64,000 nt of DNA from positions 16,382-80,381 of the forward strand of contig JANQEJ010000327.1 of the NCBI GenBank assembly GCA_028278425.1, given 5' to 3'. Position numbers and translations under genes: made by a program. This stretch comes from Planctomycetota bacterium. GTDB taxonomy: Bacteria; Planctomycetota; UBA1135; GCA-002686595. The stretch's first letter is position 1. Each line of letters starts with the position of its first letter. Positions 4,019 to 14,281 of the stretch are shown here, piece by piece. The notes under the pieces are model-generated. The model was not told the origin of the DNA. It was given only the letters and a program-made list of their open reading frames with translations, and did no database searches.

Positions 4019-4335
4019 GCCCCGAGCTGCAACACCTGCACGAGGTCTTGGCCGCGCTCACCGAAAAGTGGCGCGATTTGGGCCTCCCGGTGGAGGATCG
4101 CCTCAATGCAAAGCTCCGGGCTGGACGGATACGACGTGCGCTCATGCCGGACTTGCTCGCGTTGGCCAAGGCGGTAGAGGAGCGCTTTGGGGTGAGTCGC
4201 GAGCAGCCCTTCGGGGCTGAAGACGCCGACCCGGTGGCTGGCACGATCGGCATCACTGAGGCCAGCTTCAATCTGCGCGCCCGCATCCGAGAGGAGCTGC
4301 GCTTGGGCCGCGATATCTACGAGGAGCGGTCATGA
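4015..4335 (+). CDS. hypothetical protein
   Basis: GTG at 4015 overlaps the previous TGA (GTGA); the upstream in-frame ATG at 3949 would overlap the previous gene by 70 nt. Confidence 0.45.
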   Translation: MSPELQHLHEVLAALTEKWRDLGLPVEDRLNAKLRAGRIRRALMPDLLALAKAVEERFGVSREQPFGAEDADPVAGTIGITEASFNLRARIREELRLGRDIYEERS

Positions 4336-4562
4336 GCTGGTTCACGGAGATGCTCAAGGGAGTGCGGCAACAGCGCAACCCGCCCGCGCCCGAGCCGACG
4401 GTCGAGGTCGACGGCATTGCCTACACCGCGGCCGACGTCCGCGAGCTGCTGGCCGAGCGTCAGCGGCTGATCCGCGAGCACGAGGCTCGCGTGATCGCTC
4501 TGCAGGAGGCCCTCTACGAGGCCTCCATGATGATCGTGGAAGGAACGAGTTCAAAGGAATGA
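4332..4562 (+). CDS. hypothetical protein
   Basis: 76-aa ORF, ATGA-coupled to the previous gene. Confidence 0.5.
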   Translation: MSWFTEMLKGVRQQRNPPAPEPTVEVDGIAYTAADVRELLAERQRLIREHEARVIALQEALYEASMMIVEGTSSKE

Positions 4563-4812
4563 GGGCCCCGGCCTCCCTTGGGCACTATCGAGCCCCGGCC
4601 CACCCGGCTGCGCGTCGTGCGTGGCGCGGATTCGGGAGCCGAAAAGGACCGGAAGAGGGCGGGTCTTCTTGCCCGGGGAGCGGTCGCGGCGCCGTCCCTC
4701 GAAAAGCCGCATTCCGCATCTGCGACATGGTCGAGCGCATCAACCAAGGGTCGGTGTTCGGATGGTCCGGGCACGCGGGTTCAAACCCCGCCGGGTGCAT
4801 TGGGGGGTCACC

Positions 4813-6108
4813 ATGAGTCAATCGACAGAGCAAGTGCATTTCACGGTGGACGGCGCGGGTTTCACCGAGCTGGTCCGCAACATCCTTCTCGGCGAGCGGC
4901 CGGACGTCGCGTGGCGGATGGCCGCGCGTGGTCTCGTGGGCGACGGCAGCGAGGCGGTCGCTCGGGGCCTGTTGGACGGCACGCTCCGCCTCGTCAACGT
5001 CTCCAAGGACACCGTCACGGCCGCGCCCGATGCCGACGAGGACTACCAGCGCGATCTCCGGTACATCTACGCGGGGCGCCGGCGTGACGCGGACGGCACG
5101 TGGTGGCGTCCGGCCGCCGTCGTGCTGGGCGCGAGCGCAGCGGCTCGCCGCGCAGCCGCAGAGAAGGCGGACACCGAGCAGCCGTCGCCCGGCGCTGCGC
5201 TGCGCGAGTGGGCGCGCCTGGTGGCCGAGTACTACGCCGACGGCCACGAGCGGGTGAGACTGGTCGGGGGGCGTTGGACGATCTGGGAGCCATGCGGCGA
5301 GCGGCCCTTCTGGTGGGACTCGCCCTCGACGTGGCAGGCCGCGTGGTCGGAGGCCGAGGCCGCGAAACGCGCGATCGAGGAGCGCGGCGCCGCCGATTCA
5401 CGAGTGCTTATCCATGAGCTTGCGCGCGAGGGCGACGCGGATTGGGTGCACGAGGTGTTTGCGCATGCCGAGGCGGAGCGGCGTGCGATCTGGCACTGGG
5501 AGCTCGGAGAGCAGGTGCGCGCGCAGGCTGGCGACGACACCTTCGAGCTCGTCGTCGAGGCGTCTGGCGACGGGCCCGAGCGGCGGCTGACGGTGCCCAG
5601 GGCACCGTTCTGGCACTGGGCGCTGGCCAGCACGAAGCTCGCCCACCTCGCGCCTCCGTGGGAGGTCGTGTCGCCGGTCGGGCTGAAGCTGACATTCGAC
5701 GACCCCTACCACAGCGACTGGATGCTGGGCGCTGGCCTCGACCTGCGGGAAGACTACAGCGCGTTCGGCTCCGAGCCGGTGAGCGACGCTGCGATGGACG
5801 CGCGCTTTGAGCTGCAGAGGCGGCTTGGTTCGTACGAGGTCGCGGTCCTGGCCGACGGCGGCGAGGTGACCGGCGTGGTGGGCAAGGACGTCGCGGTCCT
5901 CCCGACCCTCGGTCCGGAGCATGCCGAGGTCGCGATGGTGAGCCGGGCCATCATTGCGGAGCGCGGCGGCGCGTTGGCTCACCTGGCGGTCGTGGGCCGC
6001 GAGCTCGGCCTGACGATCGTCCGCGACCGAGACGCGGTCTTTCGCTACCCGAAGGGCTGCGTCGTCACCATCAATCCCAGCAACGGCACCGTGAGGATCC
6101 AGCAATGA
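4813..6108 (+). CDS. protein with C-terminal PEP-utilising-enzyme mobile (swivelling phosphohistidine) domain
   Basis: C-terminus GEVTGVVGKDVAVLPTL...AIIAERGGALAHLAVVGRELGLTIV...GCVVTINPSNGTVRI matches the PF00391-type motif GG..SH.A..ARE.G.P; start set at ATG 4813 because the upstream in-frame part is Arg-rich junk. Confidence 0.65.
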   Translation: MSQSTEQVHFTVDGAGFTELVRNILLGERPDVAWRMAARGLVGDGSEAVARGLLDGTLRLVNVSKDTVTAAPDADEDYQRDLRYIYAGRRRDADGTWWRPAAVVLGASAAARRAAAEKADTEQPSPGAALREWARLVAEYYADGHERVRLVGGRWTIWEPCGERPFWWDSPSTWQAAWSEAEAAKRAIEERGAADSRVLIHELAREGDADWVHEVFAHAEAERRAIWHWELGEQVRAQAGDDTFELVVEASGDGPERRLTVPRAPFWHWALASTKLAHLAPPWEVVSPVGLKLTFDDPYHSDWMLGAGLDLREDYSAFGSEPVSDAAMDARFELQRRLGSYEVAVLADGGEVTGVVGKDVAVLPTLGPEHAEVAMVSRAIIAERGGALAHLAVVGRELGLTIVRDRDAVFRYPKGCVVTINPSNGTVRIQQ

Positions 6109-6737
6109 CCACTGAACCCCAAGAGCCGGAGGCCCAGCCTCCCGACCAGGAGGCGCCGGAGCGATCGGAGCAGCGCTCGCCGCTGGAGAGGTGGCGAGAC
6201 GCGCCGCCCGAAGCGCGGGAGAGCGTGCTCTGCATGCTGTACCAGGAGTACCTGCGCGTCACCCGGAGCGGACACATCGCGGTGATGCGCCACAACGCGC
6301 TGCGGGAGCAGCTCAGCACGACTGAGCCGCGCGACACCGAGATCGCGATCGGCGCCACGGCTGGCGCGTATGCCAGCGTCAGGAGCGCGCAGCTCGAGGC
6401 GGCGGCGCTGGATGCGGCACACCAGGTGCTCGTGGACCAGGCGCAGCCTCAGGATTCCGGCGACGAGGGGCTTTCGTTCGCGGCGTTGGTGTCTCGCATC
6501 GCTTACGCGAAGGAGATCGTCTCCCGCTGGGAGCAGCGCTACGAGCGGCGCATCGAGGTCCTGCGCGACCGGCTGAGGGAGGAGCAGGACCCGTACACGA
6601 GGGGCGTTTTGCTCGCGAGGCAGACGGTCTACACCACCGTGCTCACGGAGCTGATGGGGGCCTGTAGCCGCGGCCAGATGCCGCGGCCGCCCGAAGAGGA
6701 CGCCGAGCTTCGGCGCGACGAGGAGCAGAGATCGTGA
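6105..6737 (+). CDS. hypothetical protein
   Basis: 210-aa ORF, ATGA-coupled on both sides. Confidence 0.55.
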   Translation: MTTEPQEPEAQPPDQEAPERSEQRSPLERWRDAPPEARESVLCMLYQEYLRVTRSGHIAVMRHNALREQLSTTEPRDTEIAIGATAGAYASVRSAQLEAAALDAAHQVLVDQAQPQDSGDEGLSFAALVSRIAYAKEIVSRWEQRYERRIEVLRDRLREEQDPYTRGVLLARQTVYTTVLTELMGACSRGQMPRPPEEDAELRRDEEQRS

Positions 6738-7321
6738 ACGACCTTCCCTTCGACATCGACAAGCCCGGGGAGATCAGGACGCTCAGCGGTCACTACCTCG
6801 ACGTGTTCGACCCGGACCCCGCGACGCTGGACATTCGCGACATCGCCCGCGGTCTCGCGCTGCGACCGCGGTACGGTGCGCAGTTGCCGGAGGACTACTC
6901 CATCGGAGAGCACTCGTGCCACGTGCATGACGTGGTGCAGCGGCTCTATCCGAAAGCCACTCGCGCGGAGCTGTTGGCGTCGCTGCTGCACGACGCGCCC
7001 GAGGCCTACATTGGCGACATGCCCAAGCCGATCAAGATGAAGCTGCCGGGCTACCAGGCGCTCGAGACCATTCTTCTCGGTGCGATCTTCGAGCGGTGCC
7101 ACCTCGACGTGTCGTTGCTCGACAAGGGCTCGCCGATCGACCGCATCGACAAGCAGATCCGCTACGCCGAGCGGTTCTGGATCTACAACGACCCCATTCC
7201 GGAGGAGGCGCCCGACTGGGCGCACAAGGTGATCGTGCGCTTCTGGAGCAGCGAGCGCGCCGAGGCGGAGTTCCTGGGACGGTACGCGGCGCTCGTGGGC
7301 CCGCTGCCGCGGGGCTACTGA
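6734..7321 (+). CDS. HD-domain phosphohydrolase (YfbR-like 5'-deoxynucleotidase family)
   Basis: YSIGEHSCHVHDVV and LLHDAPEAYIGDMPKPIK motifs; GTG start overlapping the previous TGA. Confidence 0.75.
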   Translation: MNDLPFDIDKPGEIRTLSGHYLDVFDPDPATLDIRDIARGLALRPRYGAQLPEDYSIGEHSCHVHDVVQRLYPKATRAELLASLLHDAPEAYIGDMPKPIKMKLPGYQALETILLGAIFERCHLDVSLLDKGSPIDRIDKQIRYAERFWIYNDPIPEEAPDWAHKVIVRFWSSERAEAEFLGRYAALVGPLPRGY

Positions 7322-7947
7322 TGGCGCGCCCCGAGGATGTCTCTCACGGGCACCTGCACGGCGAGCTCGTGATGATCCGCTTCGAGCGGCTCTGCGCGCC
7401 CGAGCGTGAGTTCGTGATGGAAAAGGGCTACGGCCCCGACACGGTCGCGCGCGTGGTCATGGTCTCGAGCATGGGCGACGTCGGCCTGACCCGAAGGCTG
7501 GCGGCCGAGCGCGGCTACGACCTCCGGCTCGACCCGCCGAAGGTGCGCGTCCTGACGGGGCGCGACCGGGAGACGGCGAAGCGGCTCGTGAAGCTCGCCC
7601 GGGCGGCTCGGGGCAAGGAGATGGTTACGGCCGCGATGGCTGCCATCTACCAAGCGCTCGAGGCCGCGCGAGACGAGGGGCCGCTCGCCGACGCGGGTGC
7701 GGTGCAGTTCATCCACCACCCGAACGGCGCGCTCGTCGACGCGACGCGCTGTCCCCGGCACGCGGAGGACGAAGAGGTCCGCACGGCCTACCGTCGCGAG
7801 CACGGGTCGCCTCGTGGCGTCGAGCTGCCCTGCATGTGCCGGTTGGTGGCACGAGTGATCTACGCGAGCGAGGAGGTGGAGGCGGCGGCGGTCGAAGCGA
7901 TCAAGCGCTCCTACGAGCGGAACGCAGGGGCAGCTCGGCGCCTTTGA
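7321..7947 (+). CDS. hypothetical protein; its stop codon lies inside the first hairpin repeat
   Basis: ATG 7321 overlaps the previous TGA by 1 nt; C-terminus ...NAGAARRL* is encoded by repeat copy U1 (7929-7956). Confidence 0.55.
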   Translation: MARPEDVSHGHLHGELVMIRFERLCAPEREFVMEKGYGPDTVARVVMVSSMGDVGLTRRLAAERGYDLRLDPPKVRVLTGRDRETAKRLVKLARAARGKEMVTAAMAAIYQALEAARDEGPLADAGAVQFIHHPNGALVDATRCPRHAEDEEVRTAYRREHGSPRGVELPCMCRLVARVIYASEEVEAAAVEAIKRSYERNAGAARRL

Positions 7948-8210
7948 AGCCGTGACTGGAACGAACGACGGCAGCCCGGCGCCTTCGAAGTCGGGACGTG
8001 TAGGTGTGCGCGGCGAGCCCCGAAAGGCGCCACGAGAGCGTGAAGGCAGCTCGGCGCCTTTGAAGCTGGGACCGATCGGGAAATCGCGGAGCGTGAAGGC
8101 AGCTCGGCGCCCTGAAGCCGGGACGGGGGCCAAAGGCAGCTCGGCGCCTTTGAAGCCGGGACCGCATACGGCGTGAGGAGAAGGCAGCTCGGCGCCTTTG
8201 GGTCGGGAAA
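7929..8210 (+). CRISPR. upstream CRISPR-like array: 6 direct copies of a ~28-nt hairpin repeat with irregular spacing
   Basis: Copies start at 7929, 7970, 8045, 8098, 8135 and 8183. Subfamily consensus is GGCAGCTCGGCGCCTTTGAAGCCGGGAC. Spacers are 13, 47, 25, 10 and 20 nt. The last copy is degenerate. Confidence 0.6.
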
Positions 8211-8226
8211 AAGAGGAGCGAAGAGG

Positions 8227-9693
8227 ATGGTCAAACGAAGAACGAGCTCGGTCCCGTGCCGGGTGTACAAGTACGGCGCGCTGCCCCCGGAGCCGCGCGA
8301 TGTCGTGGACGAGCAGATGTGGCTGGCGCACCGCTACTACAACGACCTGATCGAGGTCGAGCACGCTCGGCGCCAGGCCTTCGTCTGGGCGCGCGACCGC
8401 GTGTCGGCGGAGGAGCTGCGTGAGGTCTCGAAGCAGATCGAGGAGGAGCGCAAGGACGTCTGCAACGCGCGCGTCCGCGACCCTGAGTGGGGGCCCGGGC
8501 TGCGCGGCACGTGCGGGCTCTACTCGGGCACCTACCTGCTCATCGAGGCGCAGGCCGAGCAGGCGCGGAAGAAGAAGGGCGCGCCGCCTCGGTTCCGGCG
8601 CTGGACGGGGGAGGGGGCGATCGGCATCCAGTGCGCCAAGCCCATCCCCGTCTCGGAGCTGATGGACGGCACCAACCGCTACGCGTCGATCGACACGTCT
8701 CCGCGCTACCACATCCGCACGGGGCGCCCCATCAAGAACGGCGCGCTGCTCACCTGCGTCGTCGGGCCCGGAGGCACCAAGGCCAGCTTCTCGATGAAGC
8801 TGCACCGGCCGCTGCCGGAGGACGGCCTCGTGCGCTGGATCAAGATCCTGCGGCGCCGCACTGCCGAGACGAGCGTCGCGGGGGTGCGGGAGAAGTGGGA
8901 GGTCCACATCACCGTGGAGTCCTCGACGTTCATTCGGCCCGAGCGCAAGGGACCTGTCGCGGCCATCGACCTGTGTTGGTCGAAGGGGCGCGTCGGGCAC
9001 CTGCTCGGCGAGGACGGATATGAGGAGCCGATTCTGCCGCACACGGCCATCGTGAAGAAGCTCCGCTACGCCGACTCGGTTCGGTCGATCCGGGACGGGT
9101 ACCTGAACGTGGCCAAGGAGTGGGCGGCCATCAACATCGACCCGCGCGTCCGGAGCTGGCACCGGATGCACGCGAAGGGGCTGATGCGGAAGATCCGCGA
9201 GTGGAGAGAGGAGGGTCACGACGTCGCCGTGCTGGAGGCGTGGCGCCATCGCGACACCCACCTCTACCAGATCGAGCACAACGTGCGGGCCAAGGCCAAG
9301 CGCCGCCTTCAAAACGACTACCGCGTGTGGGCGCGTCGCGTCGTGGACCGCTACCCGGTGATTATCCTCGAGGACCTCGACCTGTCGGAGCTCGCGACCG
9401 AGAACAGCGGCGGCAAGTGGGGCAACCACCAGCGCTTCGTGTACGCGCCCAGTCGGCTGCGTGACGCGCTGGCCAATGCGGGCGCGCAGATCGTGAAGGT
9501 GCCGGCCGCGTACACGAGCGCGCTCTGTCACTGCTGCGGCAAGGAGGTCGGTGGCACCTACCACCGGCCTCGCTGCGAGGAGTGCGACTGGGTGGGCGAC
9601 CGGCGCGAGAACGCTGTGCGGAACATCCTCGCGGATGGCATGGAGGCGCTGGGCAGAGCGCCGAAGAGAGAGGAGGCAGCTCAACGCCCGTAG
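8227..9693 (+). CDS. TnpB/Cas12-like RNA-guided RuvC endonuclease (miniature type V-like effector)
   Basis: TnpB hallmarks in order: N-terminal CRVYKYGALPP..RYYNDLIE; PPRFRRW; RuvC-I VAAIDLCWSK; RuvC-II YPVIILEDLDLSEL; Zn ribbon AAYTSALCHCCG...RCEECDW; RuvC-III GDRRENAVRNIL. SD gaggag lies 8 nt before ATG 8227. Confidence 0.85.
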   Translation: MVKRRTSSVPCRVYKYGALPPEPRDVVDEQMWLAHRYYNDLIEVEHARRQAFVWARDRVSAEELREVSKQIEEERKDVCNARVRDPEWGPGLRGTCGLYSGTYLLIEAQAEQARKKKGAPPRFRRWTGEGAIGIQCAKPIPVSELMDGTNRYASIDTSPRYHIRTGRPIKNGALLTCVVGPGGTKASFSMKLHRPLPEDGLVRWIKILRRRTAETSVAGVREKWEVHITVESSTFIRPERKGPVAAIDLCWSKGRVGHLLGEDGYEEPILPHTAIVKKLRYADSVRSIRDGYLNVAKEWAAINIDPRVRSWHRMHAKGLMRKIREWREEGHDVAVLEAWRHRDTHLYQIEHNVRAKAKRRLQNDYRVWARRVVDRYPVIILEDLDLSELATENSGGKWGNHQRFVYAPSRLRDALANAGAQIVKVPAAYTSALCHCCGKEVGGTYHRPRCEECDWVGDRRENAVRNILADGMEALGRAPKREEAAQRP

Positions 9694-10641
9694 AAGTTGA
9701 GACTTGATGAAGGCAGCTCGGCGCCGTTGAAGCCGTGACGACCTGTTGAGGGCGCTCGGAGGCAGCTCGGCGCCGTTGAAAAGTCGAGACCTGATCGGCG
9801 TGCGTCATCCAAGGCCGTGGAAAGGCGGACTGAGGCAGCTCGGCGCCGTACAAGACCGAGACGTTGGTGTCGTCACACGTCGTCAATGACCGAGACTGGT
9901 GAAGCCGGTTGGTGAGAGGCAGCTCGGCGCCGTACAAGCCGAGACGCTACGCCGCCGCGATCGGAGGGACCGGTCACGAGATGACGGAGGCAGCTCGGCG
10001 CCGTCGAAGACCGAGACTGGTGAAGCCGGTGGTGAGAGGCAGCTCGGCGCCATTGAAAGCCGAGAGGCGAAGCAGAAGTCGGAGAGGCAGCTCGGCGCCG
10101 TTGAGCCGGGACGCAATAGGCACCTCGGCGCCGTTGAAGCCGAGACGCGAAGAGATGAGGCAGTTCGGAGCCGTGGAATCCGAAAGGCGAGCGGGAGTCT
10201 CTACGGACAACCAAGGGAGGCAGCTCGGCGCCGTTGAAGCCGGGAAGCGGGGCCATGTCAGGAGGCAGCTCGGCGCCGTTGAGCCGGGACGCAATGAATG
10301 CGGACAAAGGAGGCAGCTCGGCGCCGTTGAAGCCGAGACAGCGCCGACTCTGGCCCCTCCGAGCAGCGCATGCCCCACTACGTGGCAGTTCGGCGCCGTA
10401 GAAGACCGAGACGTTTGGGAGCCCGGCCTACTCACGACAAGGTCCGGTAGAGGTAACTCAACACCGTTGAAGTTGGGACTACTGCTGGGGCCGGTGAAGG
10501 CAGCTCGTCGCCTGAGCAAAAGACGAGACCCCGCTGCGACTGACCTGACCGGAGGCAGCTCGGCGCCGTTGAAGCCGAGACGAGCGCTCACGCACCGCCT
10601 CGTGATGACATGAGGCACCTCGGCGCCGTACAAGCCGAGAC
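9675..10641 (+). CRISPR. downstream CRISPR-like array: 18 direct copies of the hairpin repeat with irregular spacing
   Basis: Copies start at 9675, 9712, 9761, 9834, 9918, 9989, 10038, 10086, 10119, 10159, 10219, 10264, 10312, 10384, 10452, 10499, 10554 and 10614. Consensus is GGCAGCTCGGCGCCGTTGAAGCCGAGAC. Spacers are 6-55 nt. A truncated remnant lies at 9886-9897. The first copy overlaps the nuclease stop codon. Confidence 0.65.
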
Positions 10642-10688
10642 TTCCGCGCGATCGTGGCTCGGCCGGAAAAACTGCTAGGCTGAGGCGC

Positions 10689-11621
10689 GTGACCGCCGCG
10701 CCTCCCATGAACCCGAAGACGGCTCGCCTGCTCAGCAACATGGGCGAGCGGACGAGCCGGCGAACGGGTCGGCGCACCTTCCACGCCGGGATGGACATCG
10801 GTTCGCGCCAGGGCGCGGGTGCGCTGATCACGGCGTCGCAGGCCGGCACGATCGAGCACGTGCTCGCCGAAGACGACCGCCGGCGCGCCTTCCGGGGCTA
10901 CGGCAACGGGGTGATCGTCGATCACGGCGACGGCACGTGGGCGCTCTACGCCCACATGGAGCGCGTCGCGCCCGGCCTCGCGCCCGGGATGCGTGTCGAG
11001 CCCGGAACGCCGCTCGGCTACATGGGCAACACCACCAACGGCGCCTTTCGGATGCCGGTGCCCCACCTTCATCTCGAGCTCCGGCGCGCGAAGGCCGATG
11101 GCTCGAGCCCGTTCCCGGGGCCCTACCGCACCTACAACCTCGATCCGGCCGACTGGCTGAGCGGCAAGGGCATGCGGTTCGTGCGCCGCGGGGGCCTCGA
11201 GATCGACCGGGACTCCCCGATCGATCTGGCCCGGCCCCAGTGGGAGGCGATCCACCCGTACACGACCGCGCCGGGCCTGGGGCAGAGCCGTCTCTACCCG
11301 AAGCTACCGCAGCGAGTGATCGCGTCGCCGGAGATCGTGCCGATCCGCGTGGGCGGCGGCCGGTGGGCTCTCGGCGCGATGGGCCAGAAGCCGGGCATGA
11401 TGCCGGGCTACGGTCAGCCGGTGCCGTACGGCCAGAAGGGGAGCGCCTCGAGCAAGCCCGGCGTCCCCTACGATTTCAGCGTGGTGAACATCTACGAGCC
11501 GGTGCGGATGGACCGCGACGTCCTGTTCGGCCTGAGTCCGGTGGCGTGGGGCCTTCTCGGCCTCGGGCTGGCGGTGCTCGTCGGCGGCACGGTGTACGTG
11601 CTGACGACCCGCCGCGCGTAG
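10689..11621 (+). CDS. M23 family metallopeptidase with C-terminal transmembrane anchor
   Basis: HAGMDIG (HxxxD), GNGVIVDHGDGTWALYAHM and HLHLELR (HxH) motifs; C-terminal WGLLGLGLAVLVGGTVYVL. Confidence 0.8.
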   Translation: MTAAPPMNPKTARLLSNMGERTSRRTGRRTFHAGMDIGSRQGAGALITASQAGTIEHVLAEDDRRRAFRGYGNGVIVDHGDGTWALYAHMERVAPGLAPGMRVEPGTPLGYMGNTTNGAFRMPVPHLHLELRRAKADGSSPFPGPYRTYNLDPADWLSGKGMRFVRRGGLEIDRDSPIDLARPQWEAIHPYTTAPGLGQSRLYPKLPQRVIASPEIVPIRVGGGRWALGAMGQKPGMMPGYGQPVPYGQKGSASSKPGVPYDFSVVNIYEPVRMDRDVLFGLSPVAWGLLGLGLAVLVGGTVYVLTTRRA

Positions 11622-13588: not shown

Positions 13589-14281
13589 ATGCGACGCAAC
13601 CGCGCCATCTCACGCCTGTTGTCTCTGCTCGCCCCTCTCGCGCTGCTCGTGGCGCTGCTCGCGCCCGGGCCCGGTACAGCGCAAGATCAGCGTCGCCGGC
13701 GCCTGACCCGCGCCGAGCTGCGCCTGCTCGAGCTCGAGTCGAAGCTGTCCTTCAACGAGGCGGGCGACTCCTACCACGACGCGGCGCTCATCCATCAGAT
13801 CGTGGAGGGAAAGGGCGAGACGCTGGTTGAGCGGATCCGGTGGATCGAGGACCACTCCCGGTGCGTCTCGGGCGTCCTGACGCAGGACCAGGCGAACGCT
13901 CGCGAGGGCAACTGCCGTTGGACCCGGAACCTGCACCAGGACGGGCGCCGGCCGCGCGGATGGAACCGCGCGTTGGATGGGCGGTGGAGCTGGACGCGTC
14001 GGCGCTGGGTGAACCACGTGCCGGTGGTGCGCCGCTTCGTCACGGGCGAGGACGACTACCGCCCGTGCGAGGAGCAGCCCGACTCGTGGGACGGCGTGCG
14101 CTACGGCCGCGCCTGCATCGAGCGTGGCGCGGACTGCCCGCCGATCATGCAGAGGACGGCCTCGAGGCGTGCGCGCCGGCCGCGGCGCGTGCTCGATTGC
14201 GCGGTGCCGTATACCCGCGATCCCGCGGCGGAGGGGCTCCACAACTTCGCGGTGGACCTCAATCCGAGCGGGCCGAGCTGA
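13589..14281 (+). CDS. secreted hypothetical protein (signal peptide; Trp/Arg/Cys-rich)
   Basis: MRRNRAISRLLSLLAPLALLVALLAPGPGTAQ signal-like N-terminus; ATG 13589. Confidence 0.55.
   Translation: MRRNRAISRLLSLLAPLALLVALLAPGPGTAQDQRRRRLTRAELRLLELESKLSFNEAGDSYHDAALIHQIVEGKGETLVERIRWIEDHSRCVSGVLTQDQANAREGNCRWTRNLHQDGRRPRGWNRALDGRWSWTRRRWVNHVPVVRRFVTGEDDYRPCEEQPDSWDGVRYGRACIERGADCPPIMQRTASRRARRPRRVLDCAVPYTRDPAAEGLHNFAVDLNPSGPS

Follow-up and report, generated by a model that had tools for sequence, protein, structure and literature searches.

The 64,000-nucleotide stretch analyzed here (the window) belongs to the Planctomycetota bacterium assembly GCA_028278425.1 (contig JANQEJ010000327.1, positions 16,382 to 80,381 of the forward strand). 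It contains a cas12m-like gene that is flanked on both sides by an array of short, hairpin-forming repeats, laid out as follows.

7927 to 8209, + strand: upstream mini-array of six copies, beginning at 7927, 7968, 8043, 8096, 8133, and 8181
8227 to 9693, + strand: cas12m-like gene, 488 amino acids, with RuvC-I residue D248, RuvC-II residue E382, and R460 at the RuvC-III position (GDRRENAVRNI)
9673 to 10641, + strand: downstream array of 18 copies, consensus GAGGCAGCTCGGCGCCGTTGAAGCCGAGAC, periods 33-84 nt

We consider it very probable that the 24 copies are the repeats of two arrays of the CRISPR type, belonging to a compact effector of the Cas12m family (type V-M, formerly called V-U1; PMC11013384) in a phage-like genome.

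A covariance model built from 25 gapless copies of the repeat, which is about 30 nt long, was run over the window with filters off. It returns 24 copies at E values of 3e-12 to 4e-5, with the next best match at E = 0.31. This is exactly the number given in a first-pass annotation, made from the letters alone, which had proposed that the repeat is a selected hairpin folding as + strand RNA. All 24 copies lie on the + strand, and the model finds none elsewhere in the window beyond the cas12m locus. Periods in the upstream mini-array are 41, 75, 53, 37, and 48 nt (its copies score E values of 6e-12 to 6e-6), and its last copy stops 17 nt short of the cas12m start codon. The first downstream copy begins ahead of the cas12m stop, a TAG at 9691-9693 that falls inside its loop. 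Apart from this overlap, both array stretches are non-coding according to a frame plot of GC content at third codon positions (GC3). The stop codon of the open reading frame (ORF) preceding the mini-array (TGA, 7945-7947) also lies within a repeat loop, and the first copy of each array thus overlaps a coding 3′ end.

Three other kinds of element were considered and rejected: a dispersed element resembling repetitive extragenic palindromes (REP) or miniature inverted-repeat transposable elements (MITE), as copies are confined to this locus; a coding repeat, as there is no GC3 signal; and a terminator or attenuator, as there is no T tract. An Rfam scan of 7000-11500 at E <= 1 matched no family. 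A homemade hairpin finder proved over-permissive in GC-rich DNA, and the covariance model was used in its place; nhmmer overlooks covarying copies, such as those of L299, one of the loci from other contigs described below.

The hairpin has a 6-bp stem, CTCGGC/GCCGAG in the consensus, and a loop whose length drifts from 8 to 12 nt, as had been stated in the first-pass annotation. The variant stems that it quoted at 7970, 9675, 10159, 10452, and 10499 are correct and are those of the five copies listed here, and the wobble-bearing stem CTCGGC/GCCGGG is present at 8098, 8135, 10086, 10219, and 10264, where it had been reported.

7968 to 7997, + strand: copy U2, stem CCCGGC/GTCGGG; pair 2 changed from U-A to C-G, pair 5 a G·U
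9673 to 9703, + strand: copy D1, stem CTCAAC/GTTGAG; pairs 4 and 5 both changed from G-C to A-U; cas12m TAG in the loop
10157 to 10186, + strand: copy D10, stem TTCGGA/TCCGAA, found only here; pair 1 changed from C-G to U-A, pair 6 from C-G to A-U
10450 to 10479, + strand: copy D15, GGTAA-CTCAAC-ACC...GTTGGG; stem compensated, and pseudoknot GGC/GCC compensated to GGT/ACC
10497 to 10529, + strand: copy D16, stem CTCGTC/GACGAG; pair 5 changed from G-C to U-A; loop 12 nt

Double substitutions of this kind, which restore pairing, had been taken as the mark of a selected hairpin, and the alignments bear this out. In a gapless alignment of 25 copies (A2), 97.9% of cells pair and five of the six pairs have changed on both sides. 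None of 500 shuffles attains the observed percentage paired or the covariation score, and sliding the 3′ partner by 1-3 columns leaves pairing at only 19-40%. When 150 copies from 12 loci are considered, 98.3% of cells pair and five of the six pairs covary, with no equal among 500 shuffles. Because the shuffle test takes no account of how duplicated copies are related, reliance is placed instead on compensated stems present in a single copy and on independent loci. Three stems, requiring two or four matched changes, are each confined to one copy (UUCGGA/UCCGAA in D10, CUCGUC/GACGAG in D16, and CCCGGC/GUCGGG in U2) and therefore cannot come from gene conversion. In the case of U2, the U·G intermediate for pair 2 is present in neighboring copies.

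The independent loci agree. The covariance-model search that had been proposed as a check yields, besides the 24 window copies, the same helix covarying in about 10 other contigs. Compensated stems are found in L299 (CCCCGC/GCGGGG, CUCCGC/GCGGAG, and CGCUGC/GCAGCG), L117 (CACGGC/GCCGUG), L013 (CUCGGU/ACUGAG and CUCGGA/UCCGAG), and L043 (UUCAGC/GCUGAA and CUCAGU/ACUGAG). The stem of L001 (CUCAGC/GCUGAG) is compensated relative to the window, and that of L002 is CUCGGC/GCCGAG. By our own count, there have been at least ~16 independent double substitutions in the 6-bp helix across all loci. Within the window, some 31-34 stem substitutions comprise 16 in compensated pairs, 13 that lead to G·U, no clear A·C, and 2-5 that break pairing. 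Substituted sites amount to ~11% in the stem compared with ~3% in the flanking GGCAG, and the stem is nonetheless paired; this combination of faster change and preserved pairing is the signature of a helix that is read by its shape. The folding energy of single copies is not unusual in comparison with shuffles, so the case rests on covariation and not on energy.

Wobble pairs reveal which strand folds. The 13 G·U cells of the window (nine if distinct variants are counted) are accompanied by no clear A·C, the sole candidates being three copies that contain an additional A, treated as a bulge in the model's alignment. When the distinct stem variants of all loci are counted once per locus, there are 22 G·U cells, one A·C, and six other mismatches. 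Strand-symmetric mutation predicts equal numbers of G·U and A·C, and the 22:1 ratio therefore means that the gene-sense strand is the one that folds, as the first-pass annotation had argued from the wobbles. The folded RNA is the gene-sense (+) strand, and this orientation is that expected of type V repeats, with the handle 5′ and the guide 3′ on the gene strand. The covariance model has no - strand match in the window.

We give almost no credence to the notion that the repeat acts at the level of DNA, as a palindromic protein site or a recombination or cruciform element, or else as a - strand RNA. The repeat is an inverted one, and a perfect copy folds nearly equally well on both strands. However, the wobble copies lose the hairpin on the - strand, and the number of copies with the canonical hairpin as their minimum-free-energy fold falls from 19 of 24 (+ strand) to 11 of 24 (- strand). 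The G·U bias runs in the gene-sense orientation, every copy is co-oriented with the gene, as in all of the sister loci, and there is no U/T tract for a terminator.

By sequence and predicted fold, the 488-residue protein encoded between the arrays is a relative of Cas12m (type V-M). It carries a CxxC...CxxC zinc finger within a Cas12f1-like TNB domain (Pfam PF07282, 6e-10), PADLOC matches it to Cas12u1 (4.8e-50), and a PDB sequence search gives Cas12m 23vw_A as the closest solved relative (E 2.3e-32, residues 112-470). An AlphaFold2 model, with a pLDDT (predicted local distance difference test) score of 90.8, has as its best four Foldseek matches Cas12m2 (8hhl/8hhm/8hio) and GoCas12m (8pm4), at E values of 1e-22 to 8e-21 and template modeling (TM) scores of 0.63-0.70. 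Cas12f comes next, at 3e-13, and both Cas12f and TnpB lie well behind Cas12m. These matches accord with the bilobed Cas12m fold (WED, REC, RuvC, and zinc-finger TNB parts), except that the long helical REC insertion of the 600-residue relatives is missing, and the protein is ~100 residues shorter than characterized Cas12m. TnpB itself was considered and set aside, the NCBIfam TnpB models falling far under their cut-off (48.9 versus 100 bits) and the locus having 24 short units in two arrays.

The RuvC-III motif reads GDRRENA where relatives have WDQD.NA, such that the catalytic Asp is replaced by Arg (alignments A5 and A6). Among 62 homologs compared, this D-E-R triad is confined to the window protein and three close relatives. 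In two sister loci, L013 and L051, the RuvC-I residue is Asn. The two closest orthologs are 72 and 67% identical to the window protein and lie on contigs (L001 and L002) that end within the first repeat copy. The ratio of nonsynonymous to synonymous substitution rates, 0.20-0.29 against two orthologs, indicates that the gene is under purifying selection, which makes the D-E-R change a stable trait. Characterized Cas12m proteins, with several types of triad, bind DNA without cleaving it (PMC11013384), and the D-E-R site is in keeping with that behavior. The first-pass annotation had referred to the + strand as the nuclease-coding strand. The strand assignment holds, but the protein is probably not an active nuclease, because its RuvC-III Asp is Arg and characterized Cas12m bind DNA without cutting it.

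The identity of the effector is matched by that of the repeat. In the cryo-electron microscopy structure of Cas12m2, nucleotides -29 to -1 of the 36-nt repeat scaffold are ordered. A stem comes first; A(-24) is then flipped out, G(-23) pairs with A(-2), and C(-22..-17) makes a 6-bp helix with G(-8..-3). C(-1) is last, ahead of the guide, which forms a 17-bp duplex with the target (PMC10442227). The window repeat reads GGC-A-G-CUCGGC-GCC GUUGAA-GCCGAG-A-C, with its parts in the same order. This match predicts a second helix between the 5′ GGC and the loop GCC. The 3-bp pseudoknot stem so defined is 99% paired in 109 distinct copies, with U·G in 11 cells, and is compensated to GGU/ACC in two copies, D15 of the window and one of L043. 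Support for it is thus modest but consistent. On the strength of this correspondence, we assign the hairpin as the CRISPR RNA (crRNA) handle of a type V-M system, that is, the 6-bp helix at the 3′ end of the repeat just ahead of the guide. A search near the locus for an anti-repeat longer than 12 nt found none; the only 12-mer falls within a coding region, at a distance of 3 kb.

Sister loci whose repeats belong to this family came from viral and metagenome collections, which were scanned for DNA patterns and then with the covariance model, giving the ~10 further contigs. A locus search with the single protein in viral and genome collections confirmed nothing, and the matches listed from a DNA-pattern scan of genome contigs included single chance matches in GC-rich genomes, with none confirmed by the covariance model. 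Wherever a fetched locus has both the gene and sequence beyond it (L001, L002, L004, L006, L013, L043, L051, and L117), the repeat follows just downstream, in the orientation of the gene. L051 has 28 copies with a period of ~72 nt, and L013 has 23 downstream copies (4151-5800, - strand) with a period of 73.6 +/- 2.6 nt. The regularity of these two arrays establishes the repeat as a genuine CRISPR repeat. The 488-residue Cas12m-like protein of L013 is 26% identical to that of the window, and the two-sided layout is found there too, with an upstream mini-array of three short-spaced copies (7371-7513, - strand). In L043 (8000-10400, - strand), ~40 copies adjoin a gene for a 605-residue Cas12m-like protein on a 113-kb viral contig. 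Their period is ~72 nt in the nine gene-proximal units and 40-79 nt (mean 57) beyond them (Spearman rho -0.37, P 0.03). L299 (930-1275, - strand) has eight copies with periods of 38-49 nt and four fully compensated stem types; its 2.6-kb contig carries no cas12m-like gene. The repeat family therefore includes regular arrays, and the irregular arrays of the window most likely descend from an ordinary CRISPR array.

These observations suggest the following mode of operation. Judging from homology and the G·U bias, the arrays would be transcribed from the + strand within the co-directional block that holds cas12m, and the transcript processed. In the RNA, each repeat would fold as a Cas12m scaffold, with its 5′-GGC paired to the first three loop bases (GCC) as the pseudoknot stem, the following A flipped out, and the G paired non-canonically to the penultimate A. 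A loop of 8-12 nt would be closed by the 6-bp helix CUCGGC/GCCGAG, and the last C would lead into the guide. The protein would bind this handle and process the transcript within or upstream of the repeat, after which the next ~17 nt would guide the binding, and not the cutting, of complementary DNA flanked by a protospacer-adjacent motif, such that transcription or replication of the target is blocked. If the protein reads the shape of the helix and not its sequence, stem mutations would survive only when paired, giving rise to G·U intermediates and then to compensated pairs. The arrays themselves would alter by duplication of units and by deletions that shorten spacers, without new acquisition, leading to the irregular 33-84 nt spacing, and selection would keep each handle foldable. 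The spacers that cluster at 16-22 nt fit the 17-bp duplex of Cas12m2, as if their distal ends could be trimmed to that length. No Cas1, Cas2, or Cas4 was found among the neighboring ORFs scanned with Pfam and PADLOC, an absence that is usual both in V-M loci and in those of phages.

Several points weigh against this interpretation. The window arrays have neither the regular spacing nor the unique, near-constant spacers of a strict CRISPR array: their periods average 54 nt with a standard deviation of 14, compared with 73.6 +/- 2.6 nt in L013. Spacer lengths, with 2-3 nt set aside as the 5′ end of the repeat that follows, are 16-22 nt in nine cases, 36-44 nt in five, and less than 15 nt in six, and these last are below guiding length by the standards of Cas12m2. 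Several spacers are paralogous and so are not independent acquisitions; there are at least three paralogous repeat-plus-spacer units, namely D8/D12 (GCAAT), D4/D14 (GTT), and 9878-9909 with 9999-10030. No protospacer was found in the window, GenBank phages, or the fetched loci. More specifically, the 5′ 16-18 nt of spacers of at least 16 nt gave no convincing protospacer in the window at <=2 mismatches, the downstream array gave only chance-level matches to GenBank phages, all arrays against all fetched loci gave no convincing protospacer, and seeds of 9-12 nt gave none above chance in the window. The D-E-R triad and the loss of ~100 residues relative to the Cas12m proteins that have been studied mean that activity cannot be assumed. 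Finally, alignments made with a covariance model are biased toward the modeled structure, a bias of which the gapless alignment A2 is free.

Some of these features might also be expected of the dead remnants of a once regular CRISPR array, in which the hairpins are inherited rather than selected and no guide is functional. Irregular spacing, the duplicated spacers, the six shorter than 15 nt, and the lack of targets all speak for this, as does the shrinkage of the L043 period away from the gene, which erosion predicts. One copy in the window is half-decayed:

9866 to 9897, + strand: decayed copy; 3′ arm ...GACCGAGAC retained, 5′ arm gone

The spacer that follows it is paralogous to that after D6 (9878-9909 versus 9999-10030, 91% identity). 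We nevertheless regard dead remnants as improbable. Neutral decay would produce A·C as often as G·U, together with many broken stems, and the window shows 13 of the latter wobble and no clear case of the former; the compensated stems of D10, D16, and U2 are not products of gene conversion; and cas12m is under purifying selection.

A more elaborate version of the proposal that these are Cas12m arrays can be put forward tentatively, and we think it considerably less likely than not to be correct. Instead of an immune memory written by Cas1-Cas2, the arrays may constitute a hard-wired set of guides, independent of adaptation, that grows by unit duplication and shrinks by deletion. Teamed with a Cas12m that its D-E-R site renders nuclease-dead, this set would give the phage multiplex transcriptional silencing of genes in its host or in rival phages. 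Units whose spacers fall short of guiding length would titrate the protein or serve in autoregulation, as would the mini-array in the leader 5′ of cas12m. Selection would then bear on each hairpin together with ~17 nt of guide, and this would account for the spacers clustered at 16-22 nt.

Every gene in the interval 6734-11621 runs along the + strand. The arrays and cas12m are bordered by two of them, the second of which marks the distal boundary of the downstream array.

7318 to 7947, + strand: upstream ORF, coding by GC3 frame plot; TGA stop in the loop of copy U1
10707 to 11621, + strand: peptidase M23 gene (Pfam PF01551, 7e-19), coding by GC3 frame plot

The upstream ORF has no match in Pfam, PADLOC, or NCBIfam. 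The first-pass annotation had noted that no terminator lies between the gene stop and the array. This is indeed so, as the first copy starts before the stop, and no terminator-like site is present on the + strand anywhere in 6500-11500. Co-transcription of the arrays with cas12m is therefore plausible on the basis of gene layout. Elsewhere in the window there is a terminase-like ORF, for which a search returned one distant uncultured match only; the ortholog loci carry genes for DNA polymerase A, uracil-DNA glycosylase, thymidylate synthase, and nucleoside diphosphate kinase; and IMG/VR contigs of 41-135 kb harbor several of the sister arrays. Together, these features indicate that the element is a phage or prophage.

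This phage-like context, with its terminase-like ORF in the window and its replication and nucleotide-metabolism genes in the ortholog loci, raises the question of whether the hairpin units are instead decoys or regulatory crRNA-like RNAs (Racr and Cracr/crlRNA) that load the Cas12m of the host, or the phage's own, with short, partly matching guides to silence host defense or cas genes, in place of a role as immune memory. Divergent repeats and short, variable spacers are found in crlRNA and Cracr arrays (bioRxiv 10.1101/2024.10.29.618823; PMC10651486), the hairpin is kept even where the spacer is too short to guide, the L299 array lacks a cas12m gene, although on a contig of only 2.6 kb, and the last upstream copy is 17 nt from the cas12m start codon. 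Against this, wherever a locus holds the gene and sequence beyond it, the element has a co-oriented cas12m of its own next to the array, leaving a stand-alone decoy unneeded, and no seed match of at least 10 nt to the locus or the window exceeds chance. We consider an explanation in terms of decoys or regulators to be as improbable as one in terms of dead remnants, though such a role is conceivable for the short-spacer units and the leader copies.

Among known systems, type V-M, as represented by MmCas12m2 and GoCas12m, is the closest. The effector matches by sequence and fold, and its RuvC site is non-canonical, like that of many family members. The repeat ends in the same series of stem, flipped base, G·A pair, 6-bp helix, AC, and guide, and the array lies downstream of the gene and co-oriented with it (its 18 copies begin at the gene's stop codon and share its strand). 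A lone crRNA may serve as the guide, no trans-activating crRNA (tracrRNA) being evident from the covariance model and the anti-repeat search, and no adaptation genes were found among the neighboring ORFs scanned. The differences are that the window protein has 488 residues rather than ~600, the helical REC insertion being absent; that D-E-R is absent from the triads given for the four clades of Cas12m (PMC10442227); that the conserved repeat is ~30 nt as opposed to 36; and that spacing is irregular, some spacers are paralogous, a second array lies upstream, and the context is that of a phage.

A phage-encoded Cas12m with an adaptation-less array has already been reported, in a September 2026 preprint on myxophage MV-1 (bioRxiv 10.64898/2026.09.14.751636), where the gene is located by a CRISPR array and no cas1/cas2/cas4, tracrRNA, or protospacers were found. 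As described, MvCas12m has 610 residues, keeps its D-E-D triad intact, and is accompanied by a single eight-spacer array, whereas the window has 488 residues, D-E-R, and two irregular arrays; two 610-residue homologs (P0008 and P0009) are 32-34% identical to the window protein. The crlRNAs and phage Cracr/Racr share with the window divergent repeats, short spacers, and carriage by phages, are sometimes stacked, and act through Cas binding without cleavage. However, they hijack the Cas proteins of the host, and their defining feature is that they match a cas or toxin promoter of the host, whereas the window has a cognate effector alongside. The omega RNA of TnpB offers a more distant parallel: the effector shares TnpB ancestry, and in three loci (the window, L001, and L004) the first unit overlaps the gene's 3′ end or lies directly against it. 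In L013, L043, and L051, however, the first unit lies ~60-90 nt past the stop codon, and TnpB has one long omega RNA inside the transposon ends of an IS200/605 or IS607 element, in contrast to the 24 short units of the window, which have their own guides and no insertion sequence ends.

Cas12m, the structure of its repeat, and its non-cutting mode were already known. What is new is a short D-E-R clade, a two-sided pair of eroded arrays with compensatory evolution within them, and a series of sister loci running from regular to eroded. The arrays amount to a natural mutational scan of the Cas12m crRNA handle, according to which any Watson-Crick or G·U pair is tolerated at one position of the pseudoknot and at five of the six in the helix, and the GGC at the flank, the ends of the loop, and the terminal AC do not vary. 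Such a scan would be useful for the design of guides for small DNA-binding effectors, which are under development as compact base and epigenome editors, and to these the locus adds a clade of 488-residue Cas12m in which the RuvC site is D-E-R and the protein falls ~100 residues short of those characterized. It also provides an example of a CRISPR array persisting in phages without adaptation genes, with sister loci ranging from a regular 72-nt spacing to an eroded 38-60 nt, and is thus relevant to the construction and upkeep of arrays and to the use that phages make of Cas12m.

The sister loci exhibit further variation. In L043, two extra copies (6343-6423, - strand) are located 1.6 kb past the main array. 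L279 (1-1800) is a regular 72-nt array of a related repeat in which several loop variants are mixed; the pseudoknot stem is 4 bp (GGCU/AGCC) in some copies, and ~290 nt with a short ORF break the array. L270 has a lone copy (1835-1863) 7.5 kb from a regular 10-copy array, with no cas12m-like gene in the 13.5 kb fetched. In L117, a tRNA-like sequence (13650-13730, - strand) directly follows a four-copy irregular array behind a distant cas12m-like gene and may mark an integration site. L003 (1-5000) encodes a 38%-identical Cas12m-like protein beside genes with matches to Csf3 (type IV), a Cas6/Cse3-type domain (PF08798), phosphoadenosine phosphosulfate (PAPS) reductase, and the DNA polymerase III beta clamp. 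L001 (9955-10000) and L002 (3158-3184) have no upstream array and carry a conserved GTTGTTTCGACGCxCTTTTGGTT just ahead of the start codon; the motif CTGCTAGGCT shared with L001 occurs at chance level in the window. Within the window itself, a small ORF at 2123-2641, ~5.6 kb upstream, encodes two helix-turn-helix motifs resembling sigma-70 region 4 and has a weak match to homing endonucleases.

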